From a virus (Duplodnaviria > Caudoviricetes): 37,949 nt of DNA. The stretch lies in IMG/VR virus record IMGVR_UViG_3300049173_000066, positions 1 to 37,949 of that record. One strand, 5' to 3'. Position 1 is the first letter of the stretch, and each line of letters opens with the position of its first letter. Both the position numbers and the translations under genes were made by a program. Shown here in pieces: positions 22,488-37,925 of this stretch. The notes beneath the pieces were generated by a model. The model was given only the letters and a program-made list of their open reading frames with translations. It ran no database searches and had not been told where the DNA came from.

Positions 22488-23047
22488 GGGCCTACTTCTT
22501 CCTCTTGCGACCGGTCTTCTTCAGGCTGGGGTACCGCTTGGTCACGACGGCTCGAACCTTCTTCTGCTGCGCCTTCGATCCGTGCTGACTCACCCTGGCC
22601 AACGCGTTCCGGGCCCTGGCCTTGGTGTCCACGGGATACGCCCTCTTCCCGGGCAACGCGAACTTGGACTTCGGAAGCTTCTTCCGCTGCTTGCTGGTCA
22701 GCTTCGCCATCTCTGGCTCCTTCGTCGTCCGTCACAGGGTCGGTCGGGAAGGGGGTTTGGAGGGGCACGGTGCGCTGGAAGGAGACGGCTTCGCGGGTGA
22801 TGAAGTTCAGCTCGCGGGTGCCGTCGGGGTGCTCGTAGTACTGGTGGAACACGATGACGTCGGTCAGCCAGGGCACACCGCCTTGGATCGTGCCGTTAGC
22901 GACAGCCAGCACGTAGATGGGCCGGTCAGCCACGACATGGCAGGGGTCAATGCCGTTGGCCTCCAGCCACGCGTTGATGCGCTGCCGGGTGGCCTCGCGC
23001 GGCACGCCGTTGCCGGGGTGCACGGTCTGCGCGTCCCGCGGCTTCAC
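22484..23047 (-). CDS. Hypothetical protein with acidic C-terminal tail (hosts nested gene)
   Basis: GTG 23047 overlaps TGA of MuF-like gene; TGA 22484 overlaps GTG 22487; globular-looking N-terminal part INAWLEANGIDP. Confidence 0.65.
   Translation of the reverse strand: MKPRDAQTVHPGNGVPREATRQRINAWLEANGIDPCHVVADRPIYVLAVANGTIQGGVPWLTDVIVFHQYYEHPDGTRELNFITREAVSFQRTVPLQTPFPTDPVTDDEGARDGEADQQAAEEASEVQVRVAREEGVSRGHQGQGPERVGQGESARIEGAAEEGSSRRDQAVPQPEEDRSQEEEVGP
22492..22710 (-). CDS. Very basic 72-aa DUF6582-like protein, nested in another frame
   Basis: AAGGAG 7 nt before ATG; LTSKQRKKLPKSKFALPGKRAYPVDTKARARNALARVSQ signature. Confidence 0.75.
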   Translation of the reverse strand: MAKLTSKQRKKLPKSKFALPGKRAYPVDTKARARNALARVSQHGSKAQQKKVRAVVTKRYPSLKKTGRKRKK

Positions 23048-23883
23048 AGGAGGGCTCCGGAGCGGATCTCGGTGCGGCCGATGAGGTCGAGGCGCGGCAG
23101 GAACTCGCGCGCGCAGTGCGGGTGAGCACTGGGGTGAGCGAGAGCGTCCTGCACGGTCCGCAGCGTGCGGTTCGCCCGGTCGGGATCGTTGTGCTCGAGC
23201 CATCCGCAGGCGGCGCCGTCCCGGACCTCCAGCCACTCGCAGCCCAGCTCGTCCAGCGCGGTGCGGGCGGCGCCGCTGTTGGCGGTGGTGACGGCCTGCC
23301 AGGTGATCGCGGCGTGCGCCCACGCGTCGGCGGGGTAGCGGGTGTTGGTGCCGTAGATGACCGCGTCGAGGGGGTGGGCGGCGAGCAGGGCGGCCGGGTC
23401 GAAGCGGGCCGCGGTGTCGCGGGCGGCGGCCTGTACGGCGCGGAGGAACGCCCTCGCGCGGCGCAGGGCTTCTTGGATGCGGGAGGTGAGGTCGGCGTAG
23501 TACTGGGCGGAGGCGGCGGTGATGGCGGCGCGGTGCCGCTGGGTCCAGGTGAAGGTGTCCTGGGGCTGGTCGGCGTGGTCGAGCGTCTGCCAGGCGCCCT
23601 CGCGGTAGATGAGAGGGAGGTCGCTGGTGGCCCAGCGTTCGATGAACGCGGCGGCGGCCCGGTCGAACGCGGCGAGGGAGCGCTGGAAGGTCGCGGTGAT
23701 GCGGCGGATACCGGCGGCGTTCCCGGTGCGGCGGCCGGACCGGATCGAGGAGAGCGCGTTGAGGAGCGCGGTCTGCGCGCCGGCGAGGATGCGCCACACG
23801 GCCTGGAGCCGGGCGGTGGCGTCGGTGATGTAACCGAGGAGTCGGGCTCGGAGGGTTCTTCCGCGCCGAAGGGGGGTGGTCAT
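23044..23883 (-). CDS. Minor capsid / MuF-like head morphogenesis protein
   Basis: C-terminal DGAACGW...AHPHCAREF; ATG 23883 overlaps upstream TGA. Confidence 0.75.
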   Translation of the reverse strand: MTTPLRRGRTLRARLLGYITDATARLQAVWRILAGAQTALLNALSSIRSGRRTGNAAGIRRITATFQRSLAAFDRAAAAFIERWATSDLPLIYREGAWQTLDHADQPQDTFTWTQRHRAAITAASAQYYADLTSRIQEALRRARAFLRAVQAAARDTAARFDPAALLAAHPLDAVIYGTNTRYPADAWAHAAITWQAVTTANSGAARTALDELGCEWLEVRDGAACGWLEHNDPDRANRTLRTVQDALAHPSAHPHCAREFLPRLDLIGRTEIRSGALL

Positions 23884-24221
23884 CGGCGTGGCCGTTCGAT
23901 CAGCTGGATGACGTCGAAGCCAGTGGCGCCGGTGTCGTCGGCTGGCGATGTCGGATCGTCGGGCGCGGGGGGCTGACCGGACTCGAGGAGGGTGATCTGC
24001 CGCTCGATGGCCTTGATGTTCTCGGTGTAGGCGACGGACACGACCGAGCTGACGTTGAGCGAGGCAGGCTGGGCCATAACCATGGCGGCCTTGCGCTCGT
24101 ACAGCACTTCCAGGGCGACCGCCCGCGCGGCGCCGAGGCGGGTGTAGCGCTGGTCGAGGTCGGCGCTGTCGGTGGCGACGCCGAGCTGGGCCAGGAGCCA
24201 TGCGCGGGTTGCTGCGTCCAC
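23880..24221 (-). CDS. Head-to-tail adaptor-like protein
   Basis: GGAGGT SD; 113 aa; synteny after capsid genes. Confidence 0.65.
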   Translation of the reverse strand: MDAATRAWLLAQLGVATDSADLDQRYTRLGAARAVALEVLYERKAAMVMAQPASLNVSSVVSVAYTENIKAIERQITLLESGQPPAPDDPTSPADDTGATGFDVIQLIERPRR

Positions 24222-24282
24222 CAGGTCACCTCCACCCAGTGCAGAGGAAGGCGGGTGTAGCAGTGAAACCGCACAGGTGGGT

Positions 24283-24470
24283 AGCCGCTGCTGCCCTCTT
24301 GACGTCCTTTCCCGCTTGAGGGCGGGATATTTCCTCCCTGGCGTCCGCCTGAGCGATTCGCCTTGAGATGGGTTCCTGGTTCACAGGGTCCTGCCCTCCG
24401 TTACACGGAGGGTCTTACGGCCCCTCCGCAGGCGTTTTGACTCTCCGCCCGTCCGGCGGCGAGTACGATC
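24283..24470 (-). ncRNA. Predicted TnpB omega/reRNA: scaffold ending in TCAA at 24299, guide about 24298-24283
   Basis: Overlaps tnpB 3' end; hairpins 24394-24412 and 24310-24327; IS200/IS605-like right end ...GCGGGAAAGGACGTCAA; 5' boundary approximate. Confidence 0.65.
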
Positions 24471-25555
24471 CGAGCTGCGTTCACATCCCGATCGTGGGTG
24501 GTATGACAGGACCCGCAGGTCCAAGTGCGGACGTTCAGGGGCTTCGGCCCGTCGATGACGAAGCACACCGAGCAGGTCTGCGAGGAAGGTAGCCAGCGGT
24601 CTACACGAGCGAAGGTGCGCCCGTATCGGGCAGCCTTGTACTCCAGCATCGACACGAACTGAGCCCATCCGGCGTCGTGGACAGACTTCGCAAGGCGCGT
24701 GCGGGCGAGCCCCCTCACCTCCAAGTCCTCCACGTACACCGCTTGGTTCTCGCGAATGATCGTCGTGGACAGCTTGTGGTGGTGGTCCCGCCGCGCATCG
24801 GCGACACGAGCATGCATGCGAGCAACGCGTACCGCAGCCTTCTGGCGGTTGGCGGAGCCCTTCTCCTTGCGCGAAAGATCCTGTTGGGCCTTCCGGAGCT
24901 TTCGTTCCACTCGTCGCAGGAACTTCGGCGACCGGATCTTCCGTCCATCGGAGAAGACTGCGAAATGCGTCAACCCCAAGTCGATACCGGTCTCCCTGGG
25001 TGTCTCCGGCAGCGGCTCCCCAGAGTTGACCTGGATAACGAAGGAAGCAAAGTACCGACCGGCCGCGTCCCTGATGATCGTCACCGATGACGGTTGCGAT
25101 GGAAGGGGGCGCGACCATCGCACCTTCACTTCGCCGATCCTGGCCACATACAAGGAGCCGGTTGGGCGAAGCGAAAATCCGTTGCGGGTCAGTCTGATCG
25201 ACTGGCGACTGTCCTTGCGGGATCGGAACCGGGGCGGCTGCACCTTGGAGCCCTTCCTGCGTCCAGCCACGGAGGCGAAGAAGTTCCGGTACGCGTCGTG
25301 AAGATCGGCCAACGCTTGCACCAAGACGACCGACGAGACCTCTGCAAGCCACGCCCTCTCGGGGGTCCGCTTCGCTGCGGTGATGACCCGCTTCTGAAGG
25401 TCCACGTCCTTGACGTACGGCAGGCCCGCCGAGAAGGCGTCTTGTCGAATACGCAGCCCGTCGTTGAATACCGTCCGTGCGCACCCGAAAGCCCGCGCCA
25501 GCGCGATGCGCTGACCAGGCGACGGGTCGAGACGGTAGTTGTACCGAAGCTGCAT
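24401..25555 (-). CDS. tnpB: RNA-guided endonuclease TnpB
   Basis: MQLRYNYRL...FGCARTVFN; RuvC-I GIDLG, RuvC-II VEDL, zinc finger CSVC/CGSC, RuvC-III DRDVNAA all intact. Confidence 0.95.
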   Translation of the reverse strand: MQLRYNYRLDPSPGQRIALARAFGCARTVFNDGLRIRQDAFSAGLPYVKDVDLQKRVITAAKRTPERAWLAEVSSVVLVQALADLHDAYRNFFASVAGRRKGSKVQPPRFRSRKDSRQSIRLTRNGFSLRPTGSLYVARIGEVKVRWSRPLPSQPSSVTIIRDAAGRYFASFVIQVNSGEPLPETPRETGIDLGLTHFAVFSDGRKIRSPKFLRRVERKLRKAQQDLSRKEKGSANRQKAAVRVARMHARVADARRDHHHKLSTTIIRENQAVYVEDLEVRGLARTRLAKSVHDAGWAQFVSMLEYKAARYGRTFARVDRWLPSSQTCSVCFVIDGPKPLNVRTWTCGSCHTTHDRDVNAARIVLAAGRAESQNACGGAVRPSV

Positions 25556-25596
25556 GTACACAGTGTACACCATGGACAGGGTCTACTGTAGGTACA
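25554..25596. promoter_or_regulatory. Divergent leaderless promoters overlapping TGTACA palindromes (Phd/YefM-type operator)
   Basis: TGTACAC-A-GTGTACA palindrome 25555-25569; minus strand TACACT-6nt-ATG(tnpB); plus strand TACTGT-6nt-ATG(phd). Confidence 0.6.
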
Positions 25597-25784
25597 TGAG
25601 TGACACAAAAAGCATGGGCACCCGGGACGCCCGTACGGAACTCGGCCGCCTCGTTGACGAAGCCCACTTCCGAGACCAGCACGTCATCCTGACCAAGAAT
25701 GATGAGCCCCGCGCCGTCCTCGTCCCGTATGCCTGGTGGCAGGACCATCAGACTGGGGAAAGTCCTGCTCCCGGCGCCACGTGA
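25596..25784 (+). CDS. Phd/YefM-family antitoxin-like DNA-binding protein (orphan)
   Basis: MGTRDARTELGRLVDEA...HVILTKNDEPRAVLVP is the Phd N-terminal fold pattern; no toxin gene follows. Confidence 0.82.
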   Translation: MSDTKSMGTRDARTELGRLVDEAHFRDQHVILTKNDEPRAVLVPYAWWQDHQTGESPAPGAT

Positions 25785-25853
25785 AAGCCGCTGCTGTTTG
25801 TTGCGCTGGTTCATCGCAGTGACCTCCCATCGGGTCGGAACGGACTCAGGAAT

Positions 25854-25904
25854 GCGATGTGCAGGTCCGTCTGGCGCCCCTTCCTAGGCGGCCCTGCACA
25901 TCGC
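25854..25904. terminator. Long hairpin between convergent phd-like gene and capsid-operon gene
   Basis: 12-bp perfect outer stem GCGATGTGCAGG / CCTGCACATCGC with imperfect inner extension. Confidence 0.7.
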
Positions 25905-25908
25905 TACG

Positions 25909-26235
25909 TCAGCTGCTGCTGCCCTCTTCAGCGGCTGACCTCCGGCCCCGGGCCGGTCTGGCGGCCGCCGTCTTCTTCGCGGCGGCCGGCTTGGTGCCCT
26001 CGGCGTCAGCGTCGGAAGCCGAGGCGGCGCCAGAGCCTTCGTCCTGGCCGTTTCCCTGCTCTCCGTCGCTTGCCTGGGCCTTCTTCGCGGCGGTCGGCAG
26101 CTTCCCGTCCACCCAGGCGACCGGGTTCGTGACCAGCGCCGCCAGGCGCCGCTCCGGCCTGGTCCCCGGCTCCAGCCGCACGGTCTGCTTCGTCTCCGGG
26201 TCGACGACGTACACGGTGCTCGCGAGCTGGGCCAT
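25909..26235 (-). CDS. Small capsid-adjacent protein with Ala/Lys-rich tail
   Basis: ATG 4 nt after capsid stop; LVTNPVAW motif then low-complexity tail. Confidence 0.78.
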   Translation of the reverse strand: MAQLASTVYVVDPETKQTVRLEPGTRPERRLAALVTNPVAWVDGKLPTAAKKAQASDGEQGNGQDEGSGAASASDADAEGTKPAAAKKTAAARPARGRRSAAEEGSSS

Positions 26236-26238
26236 GGC

Positions 26239-27303
26239 TCACCACACCGTCGCGGCGATGTGGATGTCCGGCACATACATGACCGGCATGGCGGCCGCGT
26301 TGCACTTGGTCCACACCTGCACCGGGTCGTCCTTGTAGCCGCGGGTGACGACGATGCCGGGGGCGTCCTGCCGGGCGATGGCCGGGTTGGCGCCCTGGGA
26401 CATGACCAGGCCCTCCGCCGTCAGGCCGTACTGGGTTTCGGCCCAGGTGTTCGGGTTGGGCGGCAGCAGGAAGAACATGTTCTCCGGCAGGACACGGACG
26501 TCGCTGCCGCTGGGCAGGGGAATGGTGACGTCGTAGTCGGTGATGGGTGGCAGGTTGTAGCGGGCCCGCACCACGTTGACCTCGTTCGGGGCGAGGACGG
26601 CGGTGGGGATCGTGGACGCGGAGTTCACCGCGCCGTAGTAGGCGGCCCGGTAGGAGTCGTTGCCCTGCATGAGCGCCATCGCCTTGTAGGAGGTGAGGGC
26701 GCGGGCGGGGCGCGGGGCTCCGGAGGAGCGCAGGACCTCGATCCAGCGCATCTCGTCGCCGAGGATGTCCGCGGTCGGGTCGGTCCACGCCGTGGCCGCG
26801 GTCGGCATGTTCGCCGCGGGGACCTTGTGATCGGCCTCGACGGTCAGCCCGTTCTCGTTGGAGAGGGAGAACTTGCCGTCCACCAGGAGGTCACCGGCGG
26901 CCAGCTCGAGCCGGTTCTTGATGGACAGGACGTGCGCGGCCAGGTCGTCGTAGATGGCCTGGATGAGCTGTTCGCCGTCGCGACCGTGGGAGACGGCCTC
27001 GAGGATGGTCTCCAGCTCGCCGACGATGTACTTCTGGCTCAGCGGGAGGAGCTTCCCCTCACGCTCGATCTGGGTGATCTCGCGGGTGGCGACCGTCGCC
27101 TTGGCGTCCCACGCGCGGTAGGAGGCGGCGGCGACGCGTCGGCTGGTCGAGCGGATCTTCCAGTTGACCGAGTCAAGGGTCCGCTCGGGGATGACGGTGC
27201 GGGTCAGCTCGTAGTCGGCCGGGGTCTGGATCTCCCGCACGAAGGCGTTGATCTCCGTGGGGGTGATGTCCCGCAGGAGGACTTCAAGCATGTCGTTCGG
27301 CAT
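26239..27303 (-). CDS. Major capsid protein (lambda gpE-like)
   Basis: 354 aa; RLELAAGDLLVDGKF, WTDPTADILGD, DPVQVWTK...AMPV; AGGAG SD. Confidence 0.9.
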   Translation of the reverse strand: MPNDMLEVLLRDITPTEINAFVREIQTPADYELTRTVIPERTLDSVNWKIRSTSRRVAAASYRAWDAKATVATREITQIEREGKLLPLSQKYIVGELETILEAVSHGRDGEQLIQAIYDDLAAHVLSIKNRLELAAGDLLVDGKFSLSNENGLTVEADHKVPAANMPTAATAWTDPTADILGDEMRWIEVLRSSGAPRPARALTSYKAMALMQGNDSYRAAYYGAVNSASTIPTAVLAPNEVNVVRARYNLPPITDYDVTIPLPSGSDVRVLPENMFFLLPPNPNTWAETQYGLTAEGLVMSQGANPAIARQDAPGIVVTRGYKDDPVQVWTKCNAAAMPVMYVPDIHIAATVW

Positions 27304-28924: not shown

Positions 28925-28938
28925 CAGGCCCCGCGCCT
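28925..28938 (-). promoter_or_regulatory. Conserved upstream motif AGGCGCGGGGCCTG, copy before scaffold
   Basis: Identical 14-mer at 30890-30903 and 34221-34234. Confidence 0.7.
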
Positions 28939-28960
28939 GCGATCAACTGTGGCACGAATG

Positions 28961-30889: not shown

Positions 30890-30903
30890 CAGGCCCCGCG
30901 CCT
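30890..30903 (-). promoter_or_regulatory. Conserved upstream motif AGGCGCGGGGCCTG, copy before portal
   Basis: 21 nt upstream of portal GTG; preceded by TACCCT -10-like hexamer. Confidence 0.7.
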
Positions 30904-30946
30904 ATCGATCAGGGTACGGGCGCGGGGGCCGAGAGTTCCCCCCGGG

Positions 30947-33601
30947 CTACCTGCGACCGGACAGCCTGTGGTCGGCGTACGAGCTGCTGCCGGTAGCCGC
31001 CGCGCCCGGGTTGGCCAGCTCTGTCAGGGCGTGTACGGCGGCGTCCATCCGGTCGGGGCTGTTGAGCCCGGGGACCCAGGTGACCATCTGCGTCTCCAGG
31101 CGCGGAAACTCGCCGAGATGGTGAACGAGGCCCTGGGCGTAGAGCTGCGCAATCGGTTCGGCGCGGAGCTGCTTCCCTCGCTTGGCGTTCACCTCGATGA
31201 TGGCGGGCATCAGCATGCCTTTGACCTCGCCGGAACGCTCGAGGTCGCGCCACGCCTGCCGAATGATCTGCGCTGCCTGGTCGCCGCCGAAGTTGTCCTC
31301 CACGACGAACGCGTCAGCCTGGAGTTCGATCGCGAGGCGACAGGCTTCGTGGCCCCAGGTATCGGCGCCCATGTTCGCGGAGCGGTCCGCGAGGACGTAG
31401 AACTCGCCGTTGCTGGTCCGGCCTGCGCCGCATAGGCCGGTCTCGTCGTGGCCAGCGCCTTCACCGCCAGCCTGGTCGACGGCGACGACGATGCGGGACA
31501 GGTCGACACCCCGGAACGCGACCGGGCTGATGCGGTTCTTGCTGATCCAGTCCCATTGCCAGACGCCGCCTTCGAGGGGGCGGGGCTGCTGCTGGTAGAG
31601 GGACCACCAGACACGTTCGCCGACGCCCTTCCGGATGCGCTCCAGGTCGGGGATTGCGTACCGCTCGGGCCACAGAGCCTGCCCGGGGGGCCGGTCGAGC
31701 GGGTCGTCCTCGGACATGGCGATAGCCGGGAGGTCGAGCACTGTCCACTCGGAGCCTTCGGTCTCCAGGAGGCGCCCGGACAGGTCGTCTGGGTTCCATC
31801 TGGTGTTGATGACCACCAGGGAGCCGTTGGGCTCCAGTCGGGTGAGGGCGACGGACTGCCACCAGTCCCAGACGCGATCGCGCTGCGTCTGGGACTCGGC
31901 GTCTTCGGAGCCCTTGAAGGGGTCGTCGACGATCAGGCAGTTGTGGACGAGTACGTCTCCAGCAAAGAAGTTGCTGTTGCCTTCCACTTGGAGGTCATGG
32001 ACTCGGACGCCTGGAGCGTGTACTCGGCGAACCACGGATACGGAGTCACCGTGGACTTGTGGTGCACGGCGTGGCAGGTGTAGCAGATCAGGATCAGGTT
32101 CTCGACGCGGTTGTTCGCCGGGTTCTCGTCCAGGTGATGCACGATCAAGTTCGATCGCTGCGCGGGCAGGCCGTTGCGCATGAACTTGATCGGCTTGAAC
32201 GGTGCCGTGCAGGCGGCGCAGGCGTCCTTGTCCCGCTCGAATATCAGGGGACGGGATTCCTTGAACCACTTGCTGTAGCTGGTGCCGTCCTTGTAGTGGG
32301 AGTTTCCCCAGCCAAGCATGCGGATCGAGTGCGCCTGGTCGGCGCACGGGCGAGAGCAGTACACCGTCCGACTGGTCTTGGGTCGGAAGAACAGCCCGCA
32401 CATCGTGCACGCCTTCTCCGGATGATTCCGCGAGTTGATTCGACATTGCACCGAGCAGAACTTGCGGGTGGATCGGCCGGGCATCGGTACGTCGCAGTGA
32501 TCGCACTTCTTGGCGTTCTTGATTGCATGATGTGCCTGCGAGTGCGGCTTGCAGCAGTAGAAGGAGAAGTGTCCACGCCGAAGGGCCTTGTTGTACTCGT
32601 ACCGGGGTTTCAGAAACTCCTCGTTGCACCAGAGGCACCGCAGCAGAATCTTGACCGAGCGAACCTTCATGTAGCACTCGCGGTGTGCCTGACCGCGCCC
32701 CTGATTGCCCTTCGGCTTGTTGCAGAGGATGCACGTTGCGTTCAGTCGTGACGGCTTGTACGAGAAGCCGGTCTCCGGGGCGTAGAGCAGCGGCCGGTGT
32801 GTAACCGGGTCCATCGGCATAGAAGGGGTGATCTCGGGTAGCCCGTACTCGATTCCCACCAGCGGTAACGATTTCACAGAGTCCATCGGCGCGTGTTGTC
32901 CTTGTCGCCAGGATCCGGCGCCATTCCGGGCGTCCGGTCGCATGATTGAACGACAGAACGCGTGGCTTTTCTTTCATTTGCACGAGTTCCGATATGGCGA
33001 TTCTACCGATTTCTGTGGTCACAAGGGTCTCGTCCGGGAAACAGTTCGCCCCTTTTCCCGTGAGTCCTCCACCGACACCGGCAGTGACCATTCCGCCTTC
33101 GTGTCCGGCAATATCAAATCTGTTGGCCGCATGCGATGCGGGGTTGAGTGATATTCCGAGCGCTTCGGAGTATCCGGTGATGGTGTCGCGGATCCACCGT
33201 CCGTGGTCGTCGGCCAGCGTGGCACTGTATGAGGCGAGCATCAGACGGTGGTCCGGGTTGCGCCGGAGATACCAGACGGGTGCCCAGCGCGATGCCCGGC
33301 GGCTCTTTCCATGGCGCGGCGGCATCGTGAGCATGACCTTGACCCGCTCGCCGTTGGCGATGCGCTGGAACGCCTGGTCTACGAGGTCGAGATGCGGGGC
33401 CTGCATCTCCTTGCCGTTGGTCAGGACCGCGGCGAGCGCGCCCGGGGACCGGTCCATGGCCATCTGGCGTTCGATGCGGGCAAGGCGAAGCCGGAGTTCC
33501 GGGGAGGCGTGGTGGGCTACTCGGCGGCGCTCGGCGACGGTAAGGGACCGGTACTGGGCGAGTAGCACGTCCTCGAGGAGGTCATCCGTCGAGAGCGTCA
33601 C
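30947..33601 (-). CDS. terL: Terminase large subunit precursor with intein (884 aa; about 516 aa spliced)
   Basis: Walker A MPPRHGKS, Walker B LIVDD, TRW motif, nuclease VAVDQA and SPDRMDA; GTG 33601 overlaps terS end. Confidence 0.93.
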   Translation of the reverse strand: MTLSTDDLLEDVLLAQYRSLTVAERRRVAHHASPELRLRLARIERQMAMDRSPGALAAVLTNGKEMQAPHLDLVDQAFQRIANGERVKVMLTMPPRHGKSRRASRWAPVWYLRRNPDHRLMLASYSATLADDHGRWIRDTITGYSEALGISLNPASHAANRFDIAGHEGGMVTAGVGGGLTGKGANCFPDETLVTTEIGRIAISELVQMKEKPRVLSFNHATGRPEWRRILATRTTRADGLCEIVTAGGNRVRATRDHPFYADGPGYTPAAALRPGDRLLVQAVTTERNVHPLQQAEGQSGARSGTPRVLHEGSLGQDSAAVPLVQRGVSETPVRVQQGPSAWTLLLLLLQAALAGTSCNQERQEVRSLRRTDARPIHPQVLLGAMSNQLAESSGEGVHDVRAVLPTQDQSDGVLLSPVRRPGALDPHAWLGKLPLQGRHQLQQVVQGIPSPDIRAGQGRLRRLHGTVQADQVHAQRPARAAIELDRASPGREPGEQPRREPDPDLLHLPRRAPQVHGDSVSVVRRVHAPGVRVHDLQVEGNSNFFAGDVLVHNCLIVDDPFKGSEDAESQTQRDRVWDWWQSVALTRLEPNGSLVVINTRWNPDDLSGRLLETEGSEWTVLDLPAIAMSEDDPLDRPPGQALWPERYAIPDLERIRKGVGERVWWSLYQQQPRPLEGGVWQWDWISKNRISPVAFRGVDLSRIVVAVDQAGGEGAGHDETGLCGAGRTSNGEFYVLADRSANMGADTWGHEACRLAIELQADAFVVEDNFGGDQAAQIIRQAWRDLERSGEVKGMLMPAIIEVNAKRGKQLRAEPIAQLYAQGLVHHLGEFPRLETQMVTWVPGLNSPDRMDAAVHALTELANPGAAATGSSSYADHRLSGRR
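31933..32943 (-). CDS. Zinc-finger-repeat HNH endonuclease in +1 frame inside the intein (start uncertain: 32943, 32886, 32820 or 32814)
   Basis: Repeated CxxC...FCSxxC units; IFERDKDACAAC...VHHLDENPANNRVENLILICYTCHAVHH; GC3 bias favours this frame in the intein interior. Confidence 0.88.
   Translation of the reverse strand: MRPDARNGAGSWRQGQHAPMDSVKSLPLVGIEYGLPEITPSMPMDPVTHRPLLYAPETGFSYKPSRLNATCILCNKPKGNQGRGQAHRECYMKVRSVKILLRCLWCNEEFLKPRYEYNKALRRGHFSFYCCKPHSQAHHAIKNAKKCDHCDVPMPGRSTRKFCSVQCRINSRNHPEKACTMCGLFFRPKTSRTVYCSRPCADQAHSIRMLGWGNSHYKDGTSYSKWFKESRPLIFERDKDACAACTAPFKPIKFMRNGLPAQRSNLIVHHLDENPANNRVENLILICYTCHAVHHKSTVTPYPWFAEYTLQASESMTSKWKATATSLLETYSSTTA
31940..33043 (-). mobile_element. 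Intein (368 aa) inserted just before TerL Walker B
   Basis: Block A CFPDETLV, block B ATRDHPFY, block F VHDLQVEGNSNFFA, block G VLVHN followed by Cys+1. Confidence 0.93.
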
Positions 33602-34187
33602 CCGCGGGCTCCTGGTCCTGCTGGTTCGACTCGGGACCGGTCTGTCCGGCGATGTCGATGAGCGTGTTGAGTTCGGCGAGCGCACCGGTGCCGAGGGGGA
33701 CGGCGCCGCCGTCGGGGCCCGAAACTTCAGCCTTGACGGGCATTTCGAGGCCGTTGAGTTTGGCGCGGCGTTCGCCGTTGCGGCGGCGTGCGTCTTCGAT
33801 TTTGACGAGGCGGTCGATGGCTTGGAGGACGGGTGCGTCGTCTTCCATGGGCTGGTCGGTGTCGGGGTGCAGGATGACGCGGCCGTTGTTGACCATGATG
33901 TGGCGGTTGCGGAGCACGGTGCGGGCGGCGGCTTCCAGATCCTCAAGGCGGCAGAGTTCGTCGTCGAGGCGTTCGTTCTCTTGCTGCCGGTAGATGCTGA
34001 CTTCGGCGGCTTCTTCGTCGCGGTGCTGTTCGAGGGCGCGGTGGAGGTCTCTGCGTGCGCTGCCGGGGTCGGTGTAGCCGAGGGAGAGGATCCGTTCGTC
34101 GTCGTACCGGATGCCTTGACGGCGCAGTTTGAGGAGCTGGGTGCGGCGGACGGCGACTTGGTCGAGCTTGAGTTTGGAGTGGGCCAT
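33582..34187 (-). CDS. terS: Terminase small subunit
   Basis: HTH-like N-terminus (LRRQGIRY...LGY), AIDRLVKIEDARRR..LNGL, EVSGPDGG; upstream of terL. Confidence 0.8.
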   Translation of the reverse strand: MAHSKLKLDQVAVRRTQLLKLRRQGIRYDDERILSLGYTDPGSARRDLHRALEQHRDEEAAEVSIYRQQENERLDDELCRLEDLEAAARTVLRNRHIMVNNGRVILHPDTDQPMEDDAPVLQAIDRLVKIEDARRRNGERRAKLNGLEMPVKAEVSGPDGGAVPLGTGALAELNTLIDIAGQTGPESNQQDQEPAGDALDG

Positions 34188-35621: not shown

Positions 35622-37925
35622 TCAGGTGGCCGGGGTCTCGCCCGGCTCGGGGGTGGGTCCGAGTCCGTACATGCCGCGGTGCTCGGCGCCACGCTTCGGG
35701 CTGCGGTGGATCTTCTCGGCCTTGACCAGCTTGGACAGGGTGTTCTCGAGGGTGGAGGGGTTGAGCTTGGTGAGGCTGACGATCTGGTCCTTGTGGACGT
35801 AGTTGACCGCGAGGCCGAGCGGGTCGGAGACGTCCTGGAGGACTTCGAGGATCTTGTCTTCGGCGCTGGCGGTCTTCGCGGGGGCGAGGCCGAGGCCGGT
35901 GAAGAGCATGCCGCTGTCGCCGGGCGCGAAGCTGTCCCCACCGGGGGCGCCTGCGTCTTCTTCTTCGGCCAGCAGGGAGGCGACCAGAGCGTGCCGGTTC
36001 TCCCAGCCGGGCCAGTCGAAGGGGACGGCGATGCGGTCGGTGTCGATGTAGGGCGTCGCGTCCTCGAGATCGAAGGTGCGGCCCATGGCGCAGATGCCGT
36101 CGGTGGTCATGAAGTAGCCGAGGCCGAACGTGGATTCGGGGTCCTGGATGTGGACGTCGTCGGTGTAGACGAGGGTGCCGTCATCGTCTCCGGTCCAGGT
36201 GGCGGGGATGTCGGCGGGGTTGACGCTCTCCATGCCGGGGGGCAGGTCGATGAGGTGACGCTGGGATGAGTCGGACCGCAGCATGATGGATCCGCCGGAG
36301 CCGACGATGTTGTCGCGGATGGCGGAGTCGCCGCCGATTTCGGCGAGCTGGATGATCTGGTTGGCGAGGACTTCGGATGTCCCGAGGGAGCGGCCCTTTT
36401 TGGCGATCTGGCCGACCGCACCGGTGGCGCGCTTGCGGTGGCGGGCCTTCTCGCCGAGCAGGGTGGATGCCTCGTCGAGGATGAACACGACGTGGGGCAT
36501 CACCGACGGATCGAAGTTCTTCAGCTTCAGCTGGCCGGTGAGGTCGATGCGGTGGTTGACGAGGGCTTCCGCGAGGAGGAGGGCTCCCATGGCGCCGTCC
36601 TCGCCGAGCCCGGTGTAGGCGGCCATTGCCTCGATGGCGGGGTTGGAGGAGCCCTTGGGGTCGGCGTAGATGATGACGGCGCCGGCGAGGTGGGCGGCCA
36701 GGGCGATGAGCTGGAGGACGCCGCCTTTGCCGGATCCGGTGACGCCGGAGATCAGGAGGTGGCGGGCGCCGAGCTTCGGGTCGAGAAGCTGGGCGCGGAC
36801 GGGGCGGCCGGAGACGGCGCGGCCGATGCGGAAGTAGCCGCCGTCTGAGGGCAGGAGGGCCTTCGGGCCGGGGAAGGGGATGCCCGCGCGGAGGGGGTTT
36901 TCCTGCATGAGGCGGACGACGGCGGTGCGGGGGTTGGTGCCGGGTTCGTAGGACAGCAGGATGTGGCTGGTGCGGAGGGCGCCGACGAGGTCGCGCATGT
37001 TGGGGGTGGGGAGGGAATCAGTGTCCTCGTTGGCGACGACGCGGGCGACCTCGCCGCCGGTGTTGGGGTCGGGCTGGACTTCTTCGAGGTGGGTGCCGGA
37101 CATGATGCCGCCGGAGCGGGCGGCGTACTTCTTCCATGCCCCGGCGAGGGTGGTGGGGTCGAGTTCGGCGGGCTGGGTGAGGTTGACGGTGATGTGGCGT
37201 TCGCCTTCGTGGGCGCCGGGCCGGAAGGTGATCCAGTCGACGGGGACCTGGTAGACGGAGGAGACGGTCTCCTTGGTGACGCTGACGCTGGTGCCGACGG
37301 GGGCGGTGATAGTGCCGGTCCAGCGGGTGGGGCCGATGGTGCGGACGTCGAGGTCCTGGCCTTTGTGGGTGCCGTTGTCGTGGTTGGAGATGACCTGGTA
37401 CCAGCGGTAGGCGATCTGCTTGGCGGGTGTGGTGACTGCTTCGGCTGCGGGTGTGCCCGGTGGGGCCGCCACGAGGGTCTTCGGCTTGTGCTGTCGACCG
37501 AGGACCTTGCGGAGCTTCCACGGGACGAGAGCGGTGGCGGCCCACCAGCCGAGGGAGACGATGCCGGGGACGGACGGGGGGTTGAGGATGCCGGCCATCA
37601 GGGCGTCGGTTCCTTCGGGGCCCATGAGGGTTCCGATACCGAGGGCCATCCCGGTGGTGAGCGTGCTGATGAACAGCGGGGACCGGTGGGCGCGCAGCAC
37701 GTCTCCGGCGGGGAGCTGGTCGATGAGGCTGTTCGGGAGCCGGTTCATGTAGTTCGCGGCGAGGAAGCCTGCGGTGCCGCCGTAAGTGACGGCGGCCGTG
37801 AATGCGGCGCCGCCATCGAGGAACGGGGCGAGTACGCCGACGCTGATGGGGGCGGCGGAGGTGACGATGGCGATGGCGCGTTCGGTTGAGGCGGCGCGGG
37901 GGCTGGTGGTGGCGGTGCTGCTCAC
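35622..37925 (-). CDS. TraB/FtsK-SpoIIIE-like DNA translocase
   Basis: N-terminal TM helices, Walker A GVTGSGKG, DPKG, Walker B FILDEA, KGRSLG, C-terminal winged-helix-like region; AAGGAG SD. Confidence 0.82.
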   Translation of the reverse strand: MSSTATTSPRAASTERAIAIVTSAAPISVGVLAPFLDGGAAFTAAVTYGGTAGFLAANYMNRLPNSLIDQLPAGDVLRAHRSPLFISTLTTGMALGIGTLMGPEGTDALMAGILNPPSVPGIVSLGWWAATALVPWKLRKVLGRQHKPKTLVAAPPGTPAAEAVTTPAKQIAYRWYQVISNHDNGTHKGQDLDVRTIGPTRWTGTITAPVGTSVSVTKETVSSVYQVPVDWITFRPGAHEGERHITVNLTQPAELDPTTLAGAWKKYAARSGGIMSGTHLEEVQPDPNTGGEVARVVANEDTDSLPTPNMRDLVGALRTSHILLSYEPGTNPRTAVVRLMQENPLRAGIPFPGPKALLPSDGGYFRIGRAVSGRPVRAQLLDPKLGARHLLISGVTGSGKGGVLQLIALAAHLAGAVIIYADPKGSSNPAIEAMAAYTGLGEDGAMGALLLAEALVNHRIDLTGQLKLKNFDPSVMPHVVFILDEASTLLGEKARHRKRATGAVGQIAKKGRSLGTSEVLANQIIQLAEIGGDSAIRDNIVGSGGSIMLRSDSSQRHLIDLPPGMESVNPADIPATWTGDDDGTLVYTDDVHIQDPESTFGLGYFMTTDGICAMGRTFDLEDATPYIDTDRIAVPFDWPGWENRHALVASLLAEEEDAGAPGGDSFAPGDSGMLFTGLGLAPAKTASAEDKILEVLQDVSDPLGLAVNYVHKDQIVSLTKLNPSTLENTLSKLVKAEKIHRSPKRGAEHRGMYGLGPTPEPGETPAT

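Follow-up and report, generated by a model that had tools for sequence, protein, structure and literature searches.

A Phd-TnpB cassette between two conserved phage genes

We analyzed a 37,949-nucleotide stretch of viral DNA (Caudoviricetes; IMG/VR record IMGVR_UViG_3300049173_000066; hereafter the window) in which a Phd/YefM-family gene (plus strand) and a divergently transcribed tnpB (minus strand) form a cassette between two phage genes, g108 and g113. The 37.9-kb window corresponds to a head-and-tail module, with capsid, scaffold, intein-containing terminase and tail genes and a weak TraB/FtsK match. Its nearest annotated relatives are Streptomyces phage ZL12 and Streptomyces plasmids of approximately 86-94 kb that bear capsid genes; pZL12 is termed a plasmid-phage in the title of a reference cited in PMC4487206. 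The window thus resembles pZL12-type Streptomyces plasmid-phages, a likeness from which its probable host and lifestyle are taken. The gene order capsid-g108-g113 is conserved in relatives, and the g108 homologs of those lacking the cassette are syntenic and 39-83% identical; g108 itself matches no Pfam or PHROG family. The locus comprises the following features.

26239-27303, minus strand: major capsid protein gene, upstream context (PF03864, E 1e-25)
25909-26235, minus strand: g108, a 108-aa phage gene with syntenic homologs, whose 3′ end carries the target
25775-25794, minus strand: decayed left-end hairpin, of which only the loop TTCA is in place; read on the opposite strand, the loop is the phd stop codon
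25596-25784, plus strand: Phd/YefM-family gene, divergent from tnpB and lacking a toxin partner (PF02604, E 2e-8; TIGR01552 above cut-off)
25555-25600, no strand: divergent promoter region with two TGTACA palindromes immediately before the tnpB start; predicted operator from its sequence
24401-25555, minus strand: tnpB, 384 aa (PF12323, PF01385, PF07282; NF040570 above cut-off)
24299-24450, minus strand: predicted omega-RNA scaffold, 5′ boundary approximate (right-end hairpin 24310-24328, terminal TCAA 24299-24302)
24283-24298, minus strand: predicted 16-nt guide, directly after the right-end TCAA common to relatives
23880-24221, minus strand: g113, a conserved 113-aa phage gene, downstream flank (homologs at about 51-82% identity)

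The cassette's TnpB contains helix-turn-helix (HTH), OrfB_IS605 and zinc-finger domains, scores 332 bits against NF038281 (under the cut-off of 425) and, when aligned to ISDra2 TnpB (E 3e-70), has an intact RuvC triad (D192/E276/D357) and zinc finger. The omega-RNA region shares 85% mean column identity with six relatives, and 11 of the 43 pairs in its consensus fold are changed on both sides. Its predicted end at TCAA, as in close relatives, bears out the placement of the guide in a preliminary description of this locus. Rfam returned no match for the omega-RNA or for the hairpin element described below, and nothing in the window reached a gathering score, including the group I intron structure found at the left end of IStrons; one weak, unrelated match (E 0.59) falls within 24150-26050. 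A 477-codon alternative frame (ATG at 25814; 24381-25814, minus strand) begins at a duplicated ribosome-binding site and ATG and crosses the whole cassette. We rejected it as a functional read-through open reading frame (ORF) because the same frame is stop-free inside the tnpB of relatives L045 and L193; it is probably a GC effect.

Several lines of evidence suggest that the Phd protein likely represses tnpB: the promoter palindromes themselves, the reported binding of YefM to paired TGTACA cores (PMC1802561), and the GTAC repeats of Phd-type relatives (3-6 cores in five such elements versus 0-1 in five Arc- or HTH-type relatives). A query with the Phd protein against viral contigs gave no match. 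As a separate observation, the tnpB-only relatives L023, L024, L025, L045, L053, L057, L061 and L193 exchange their divergent regulator among Phd/YefM, Arc-like and MerR-like HTH types (assigned by eye), and the promoter palindromes change together with the regulator gene.

No tnpA is present among the ORFs between g108 and g113. The right-end hairpin and TCAA occur as in IS605 relatives, and the left-end hairpin behind a target motif is absent. The window's left end can be aligned with the left-end hairpins of L193, L045, L057 and L061, but its arms are unpaired, and TGAC is missing from the usual position 26-29 nt before the hairpin loop. Since IS605 excision is reported to depend on the stem-loop and the transposon-associated motif (TAM; 10.1101/2023.03.14.532601), the element is predicted to be immobile. 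It also departs from the insertion of such elements without target duplication, as homologous copies of 115 and 80 nt flank the cassette. TnpB relatives at 75-82% identity occupy unrelated sites; no near-identical copy was found. Its ends and domains identify the cassette as a Phd-TnpB element of the IS605 type that is non-autonomous and whose left end has decayed. The preliminary description had portrayed it as a transposase-free module, which holds as far as the missing tnpA between the flanking genes is concerned; with mobile relatives in existence, it is not purpose-built. A canonical left end combined with copies at unrelated sites had been named as grounds for abandoning that portrayal. 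The window's own left end is not intact, and close relatives have both, indicating that the window element belongs to a mobile family and has become grounded.

The guide, its duplicated target and the recognition motif

On the minus strand, the cassette's right end reads ...GGACGTCAA followed by GAGGGCAGCAGCGGCT (24298-24283), and the end of g108 reads ...GCTGAA followed by GAGGGCAGCAGCAGCT (25926-25911). These 16-mers, found as originally described, agree at 15 of 16 positions, with the first 12 perfect and the sole mismatch at position 13; the pair was also detected as repeat D5 (18 nt, 94%). By base composition, a 12-nt seed is expected 0.0005 times per 1.5 kb, so the match exceeds chance. 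We searched up to 1.5 kb upstream of 81 TnpB elements (the window's and 80 relatives; another 21 loci were left out because they were duplicate or short or had no called right end) for matches to each element's own seed. Only the window had one of at least 10 nt, and the maximum among the other 80 was 9 nt. The features of this region are as follows.

25942-25956, minus strand: hairpin 1 of a three-hairpin element (5 pairs, 90.6% of cells paired, no covariation)
25908-25939, minus strand: hairpin 2, with the predicted TAM-target junction in its 10-nt loop (8-bp stem preserved in almost all of 70 alleles)
25927-25930, minus strand: TGAA, where the TAM of the phage's own target would lie (predicted TAM, TGAC)
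25911-25926, minus strand: the phage's own target copy
25854-25904, minus strand: hairpin 3, intact in the left copy (8 of 12 pairs changed on both sides, 36 sequences)
25812-25926, minus strand: 115-nt left copy of the duplication, from alignment with cassette-free alleles
25786-25796, minus strand: 11-nt match to guide positions 6-16, without seed start and without TAM
24219-24298, minus strand: 80-nt right copy of the duplication, which has lost the stop codon and the core of hairpin 3

The guide-target repeat is the best-preserved part of this duplication, whose copies share no exact stretch longer than 14 bases. The left copy contains the gene end, stop codon, hairpin 3 and a ribosome-binding site, as well as an ATG that corresponds in position to the g113 start codon; the right copy retains the guide and the g113 ribosome-binding site. 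The gene end had been proposed to be restored or recoded by the cassette. It is indeed restored on the left, through duplication together with the downstream intergenic region and not through synonymous recoding. Alignment scores of the right copy against 12 alleles single out no lineage, leaving both in-place duplication and recombination with another phage as its origin. The 11-nt piece of the guide noted earlier (CAGCAGCGGCT, 25796-25786) is present, but guide positions 1-5 are missing; it occupies the former place of the 5′ arm of the left-end hairpin and is possibly a recombination scar or a chance match.

Across 36 sequences, which are related to each other and from which the structure itself was drawn, 95.2% of cells in the three hairpins are paired, and both partners have changed in 13 of 25 pairs (5 of 8 in hairpin 2). 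None of 500 shuffles reached the observed value, and slid controls were 35-46% paired. In L006 the hairpin-2 motif persists beyond the stop codon. An insertion point in the loop of hairpin 2 explains both the conservation of the target nucleotides and the need for their restoration. The element as a whole (25854-25956, minus strand) is found in L001-L019 and others, where it lies at the end of the gene that follows capsid, and has G-rich loops; it may serve as a signal for transcript processing, antitermination or packaging.

The motif recognized by this TnpB is probably TGAC. The motif before the left-end hairpin divides relatives into TGAC and CTAC groups, and in a tree built by a quick method from 96 rows the window TnpB falls in a six-row clade (SH-aLRT 98) with L193, L053, L045, L057 and L061. 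The first three have TGAC, L057 has TGAT (by eye), and L061 is unclear, with TGGC at TAM distance; L284, 81% identical to the window, likewise has TGAC. In the two-copy pairs L198/L207 and L071/L072, flanks are unrelated up to the common TGAC, placing the element boundary directly after it. A search by left flank for the empty site of L193, whose relatives diverge past the stop codon, yielded an orthologue, L269, that reads TGAC followed directly by CCGT at the insertion site, with no duplication; L265 and L266 inform this junction more weakly. Window residues aligned to the ISDra2 TAM contacts agree with the TGAC group and not with the CTAC group. ISAba30 and ISTfu1 TnpB have been reported to use TGAC and TGAT as TAMs (PMC10787141). 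We assume for the window element what has been shown for ISDra2, namely that TAM and insertion motif are the same (PMC8612924). As an aside, the 6 nt past the presumed left boundary of L061 are identical to the guide's first 6 nt, with TGGC at TAM distance, which may be chance or a repair footprint.

Relatives without the cassette carry the target, as a comparison of this gene end proposed in the preliminary description now reveals. We retrieved 143 loci with a g113 match, repeat fetches included, and found TnpB at none; 39 were too distant or truncated to parse, and the rest gave 71 distinct alleles. Of these, 30 have TGAC before the target and none has TGAA. A perfect 12-nt seed occurs in 13 alleles, 12 of them behind TGAC, and the guide agrees with several relatives at 15 of the first 15 nucleotides, better than with the window's own copy. 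An IMG/VR scan for GCTGAH plus seed returned 19 stretches, 13 of them this same locus and all 13 with TGAC. The guide therefore records a genuine family allele with a TAM, where an IS605 element would insert, and likely preserves the original insertion site. At position -1, the five relatives nearest in their gene ends all carry C; among these sequences, only the C-to-A change at that position is private to the window. A change from TGAC to TGAA thus likely protects the phage's own copy, in keeping with the earlier idea of a protective TAM variant, if not with the CTGAA motif then suggested.

Selection on tnpB, proposed function and competing explanations

The tnpB gene has been under long purifying selection. 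Comparison with four close relatives gives dN/dS values of 0.15-0.20, and changes private to the window amount to 72 synonymous at 177 sites and 32 non-synonymous at 567 sites (ratio 0.14; relatives 0.14-0.25); the window has the most synonymous changes among the tnpB genes compared. The right-end hairpin and guide are preserved, while the left-end hairpin and the hairpin 3 of the right copy are lost.

We lean toward the view that Phd-TnpB is an active, self-sparing, RNA-guided free-standing nuclease for homing into, or exclusion of, related phages. The element would have inserted 3′ of TGAC in the conserved hairpin loop at the g108 end, turning its right flank into the guide. Later recombination or duplication would have returned the full gene end and hairpin element on the left, removing the left-end leader, and under an active TnpB only a left copy without TAM could have survived. 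Release from Phd repression, or read-through by late transcription, would let TnpB cleave co-resident or co-infecting relatives bearing TGAC plus seed at approximately 15-21 bp beyond the TAM. Cleavage would lead either to loss of the relative's genome or to its repair from that of the carrier, and between close siblings such repair would copy the cassette. Exclusion appears more likely than homing because the relatives found are only 60-83% identical. A cassette-free relative detected in the same soil sequencing run suggests that such encounters can occur.

A number of observations weigh against this view. TGAC plus the 12-nt seed occurs in only 12 of 71 alleles (17%), so that 59 are predicted to be resistant, and 41 lack TGAC, indicating that absence of the TAM is common even without a cassette. 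No near-identical empty sibling was found. Nor was a second occupied allele: a viral pattern scan and the g113 loci gave none (0 and 0/143), a metagenome pattern scan gave two chance matches only, and BLAST against phages and plasmids and the 401 Streptomyces genomes gave none, and spread of the cassette is accordingly not seen. The position-13 mismatch, once put forward as a means of self-escape, is ancestral, as the cassette-free L134 and L209 share the window's A at +13, and ISDra2 TnpB is reported to tolerate mismatches at positions 13-16 (PMC10097598); we reject it. The TAM derives from transposon ends and not from cleavage. Because ISDra2 makes only van der Waals contacts with position -1 (PMC10097598) and archaeal SisTnpB recognizes and cuts weak TAMs (PMC11043419), TGAA may not be fully immune. 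The purifying selection may predate the loss of the left end and mobility, and G+C content at third codon positions (GC3) is 0.77 in tnpB versus 0.86-0.93 in relatives, which could reflect low expression.

Several of these points would also follow if the cassette were an ordinary non-autonomous IS605 relic, its duplication selected only for repair of the gene end and hairpin, its TnpB silenced by Phd and without a current role, and its TGAA a product of drift. We regard this account as possible though doubtful. Phd-, Arc- and HTH-TnpB elements are frequent at unrelated actinomycete sites, the occupied allele occurs once, GC3 is reduced, and the paired TGTACA operator predicts repression; beyond the 41 empty alleles without TGAC, 6 of 70 have A at -1 plus an altered -2 base. 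A relic is harder to reconcile with a frame, catalytic residues, omega-RNA and guide that are all intact despite the decay of the left-end hairpin and right hairpin 3, with private tnpB changes that are strongly synonymous, and with TGAC in 12 of the 13 seed-perfect alleles, yet not in the window.

We consider it improbable that the window's own TGAA site serves as a weak target, bound or occasionally nicked to modulate late transcription or recombination at the three-hairpin element. Its perfect 12-nt seed, its location within a conserved structured element, the C/T variation at -1 among related elements and the reported use of weak TAMs by SisTnpB (PMC11043419) are compatible with such a role. 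Yet the RuvC triad is intact, unlike that of nuclease-dead regulators, the guide fits relatives better than self, and the duplication accounts for the match without any regulatory purpose. Still less probable is a guide aimed at the host chromosome with an incidental phage match: TGAH plus the 12-nt seed occurs in 11 of 401 Streptomyces genomes (9 with TGAC, 4 in one orthologous gene), but these matches are rare, mostly unrelated to one another and mostly end after position 12, and the right flank is homologous to the phage intergenic region over 80 nt. Misassembly of two related phage alleles around an insertion sequence is hardly credible: the stretch is present in a single run (X1, DNA, soil metagenome, possibly the source of the window; no RNA run is listed as carrying it) that also contains a cassette-free relative (depth 71 versus 348), but one contig of that run spans 22500-26788 with zero differences and uniform depth, and the 14 exact bases shared by the copies are too short to confuse assembly.

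A parallel that speaks for the self-sparing nuclease is a second Phd-TnpB in a ZL12-type plasmid (L283:2466-3960; NZ_CP109340.1), between the terminase and the next head gene. This cassette has no left-end hairpin, no TAM and no duplication; its guide matches the cassette-free L287 behind GTAC, and the homologous site in the window (approximately 30893-30913) differs within the seed. Tentatively, ZL12-type plasmid-phages may repeatedly ground Phd-TnpB in late-operon hairpin loops as homing or exclusion weapons, in the present case with rebuilding and TAM-immunizing of the element.

Other features of the window and its relatives were noted alongside. A 99-kb Streptomyces plasmid (L286:2233-3780; NZ_CP108279.1) carries an HTH-type gene and TnpB with no obvious left-end hairpin. 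In the window, a hairpin motif lies between the terminase and the next gene (30895-30928, minus strand), with a related copy at 28929-28945 (minus strand) and similar motifs in L149 and L287, and is a possible late-operon control element. The terminase large subunit (30947-33946, minus strand) bears an intein of approximately 350 aa, a second possible homing element of this phage. A 767-aa FtsK/TraB-like gene (35622-37925, minus strand; weak matches) fits a conjugative plasmid-phage.

Relation to known RNA-guided and homing systems

The cassette resembles the IS200/IS605 homing systems of ISDra2 (PMC8612924) and ISGst (10.1101/2023.03.14.532601) in its RuvC-type TnpB, right-end omega-RNA and right-flank guide; there, too, the TAM equals the insertion motif and many copies lack tnpA. 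In those elements, insertion is described as free of target duplication, and the presence of the transposon is what sets self apart from non-self. The window instead has a second copy of the site in cis and a decayed left end, and would distinguish self by a TAM base change. In plasmids, TnpB can act as a gene drive that cuts copies of the same replicon free of the insertion sequence (PMC11870625), a "non-restorative homing" reviewed as independent of TnpA (PMC13565253). The window's phage likewise resembles plasmid-phages; the plasmid drive involves an intact insertion sequence that splits its target, as opposed to a restored copy without TAM.

Intronless homing by SegF and SegB of phage T4, in which self is spared by sequence substitution (PMC13565253), offers another parallel: a nuclease gene sits between two conserved phage genes, and its target lies in the neighboring gene of relatives. 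SegF and SegB are protein-guided, unlike the window nuclease, which is RNA-guided, transposon-derived and active by prediction. The window shows the same arrangement, with a stand-alone nuclease between conserved genes that is absent from the relatives' loci, a target in the neighboring gene and a TGAA copy of its own that is presumably protected. Free-standing homing endonucleases have GIY-YIG, HNH or LAGLIDADG domains. Only TnpB domains are found in the window nuclease; hence, the cassette works like, but is not, a free-standing homing endonuclease. TldR proteins are nuclease-dead, TnpB-derived RNA-guided repressors, fixed beside a guide-related gene and in some cases carried by phages. The window TnpB is similarly TnpB-derived and fixed beside a gene related to its guide, but unlike TldR it keeps all three RuvC residues.

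Some IS605 elements are regulated by Arc, a small DNA-binding protein, with palindromes at the tnpB promoter (10.64898/2026.09.24.754181). The window shares an in-element DNA-binding protein and promoter palindromes; its regulator has a Phd/YefM fold, unlike the ribbon-helix-helix Arc, and "Phd" is absent from the main text of that report. These features suggest that Phd/YefM proteins may act as IS605 repressors. A literature search, with supplementary tables and many subscription papers outside its scope, found no phage TnpB with a duplicated, TAM-less self target. The covarying three-hairpin element is also undescribed.

In known TnpB homing, insertion itself destroys the target. Here, the target has been rebuilt in cis and is apparently protected by one TAM base, which is the logic of T4-type intronless homing executed by an RNA guide. 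If true, this would fill the missing RNA-guided cell among homing types, with self told from non-self by substitution and not by transposon presence. Natural alleles predicted to be susceptible or immune exist in sequenced Streptomyces plasmid-phages. The cassette would represent a concrete step from a selfish transposon nuclease to a fixed-guide inter-phage weapon, the route proposed for the origins of type V CRISPR.

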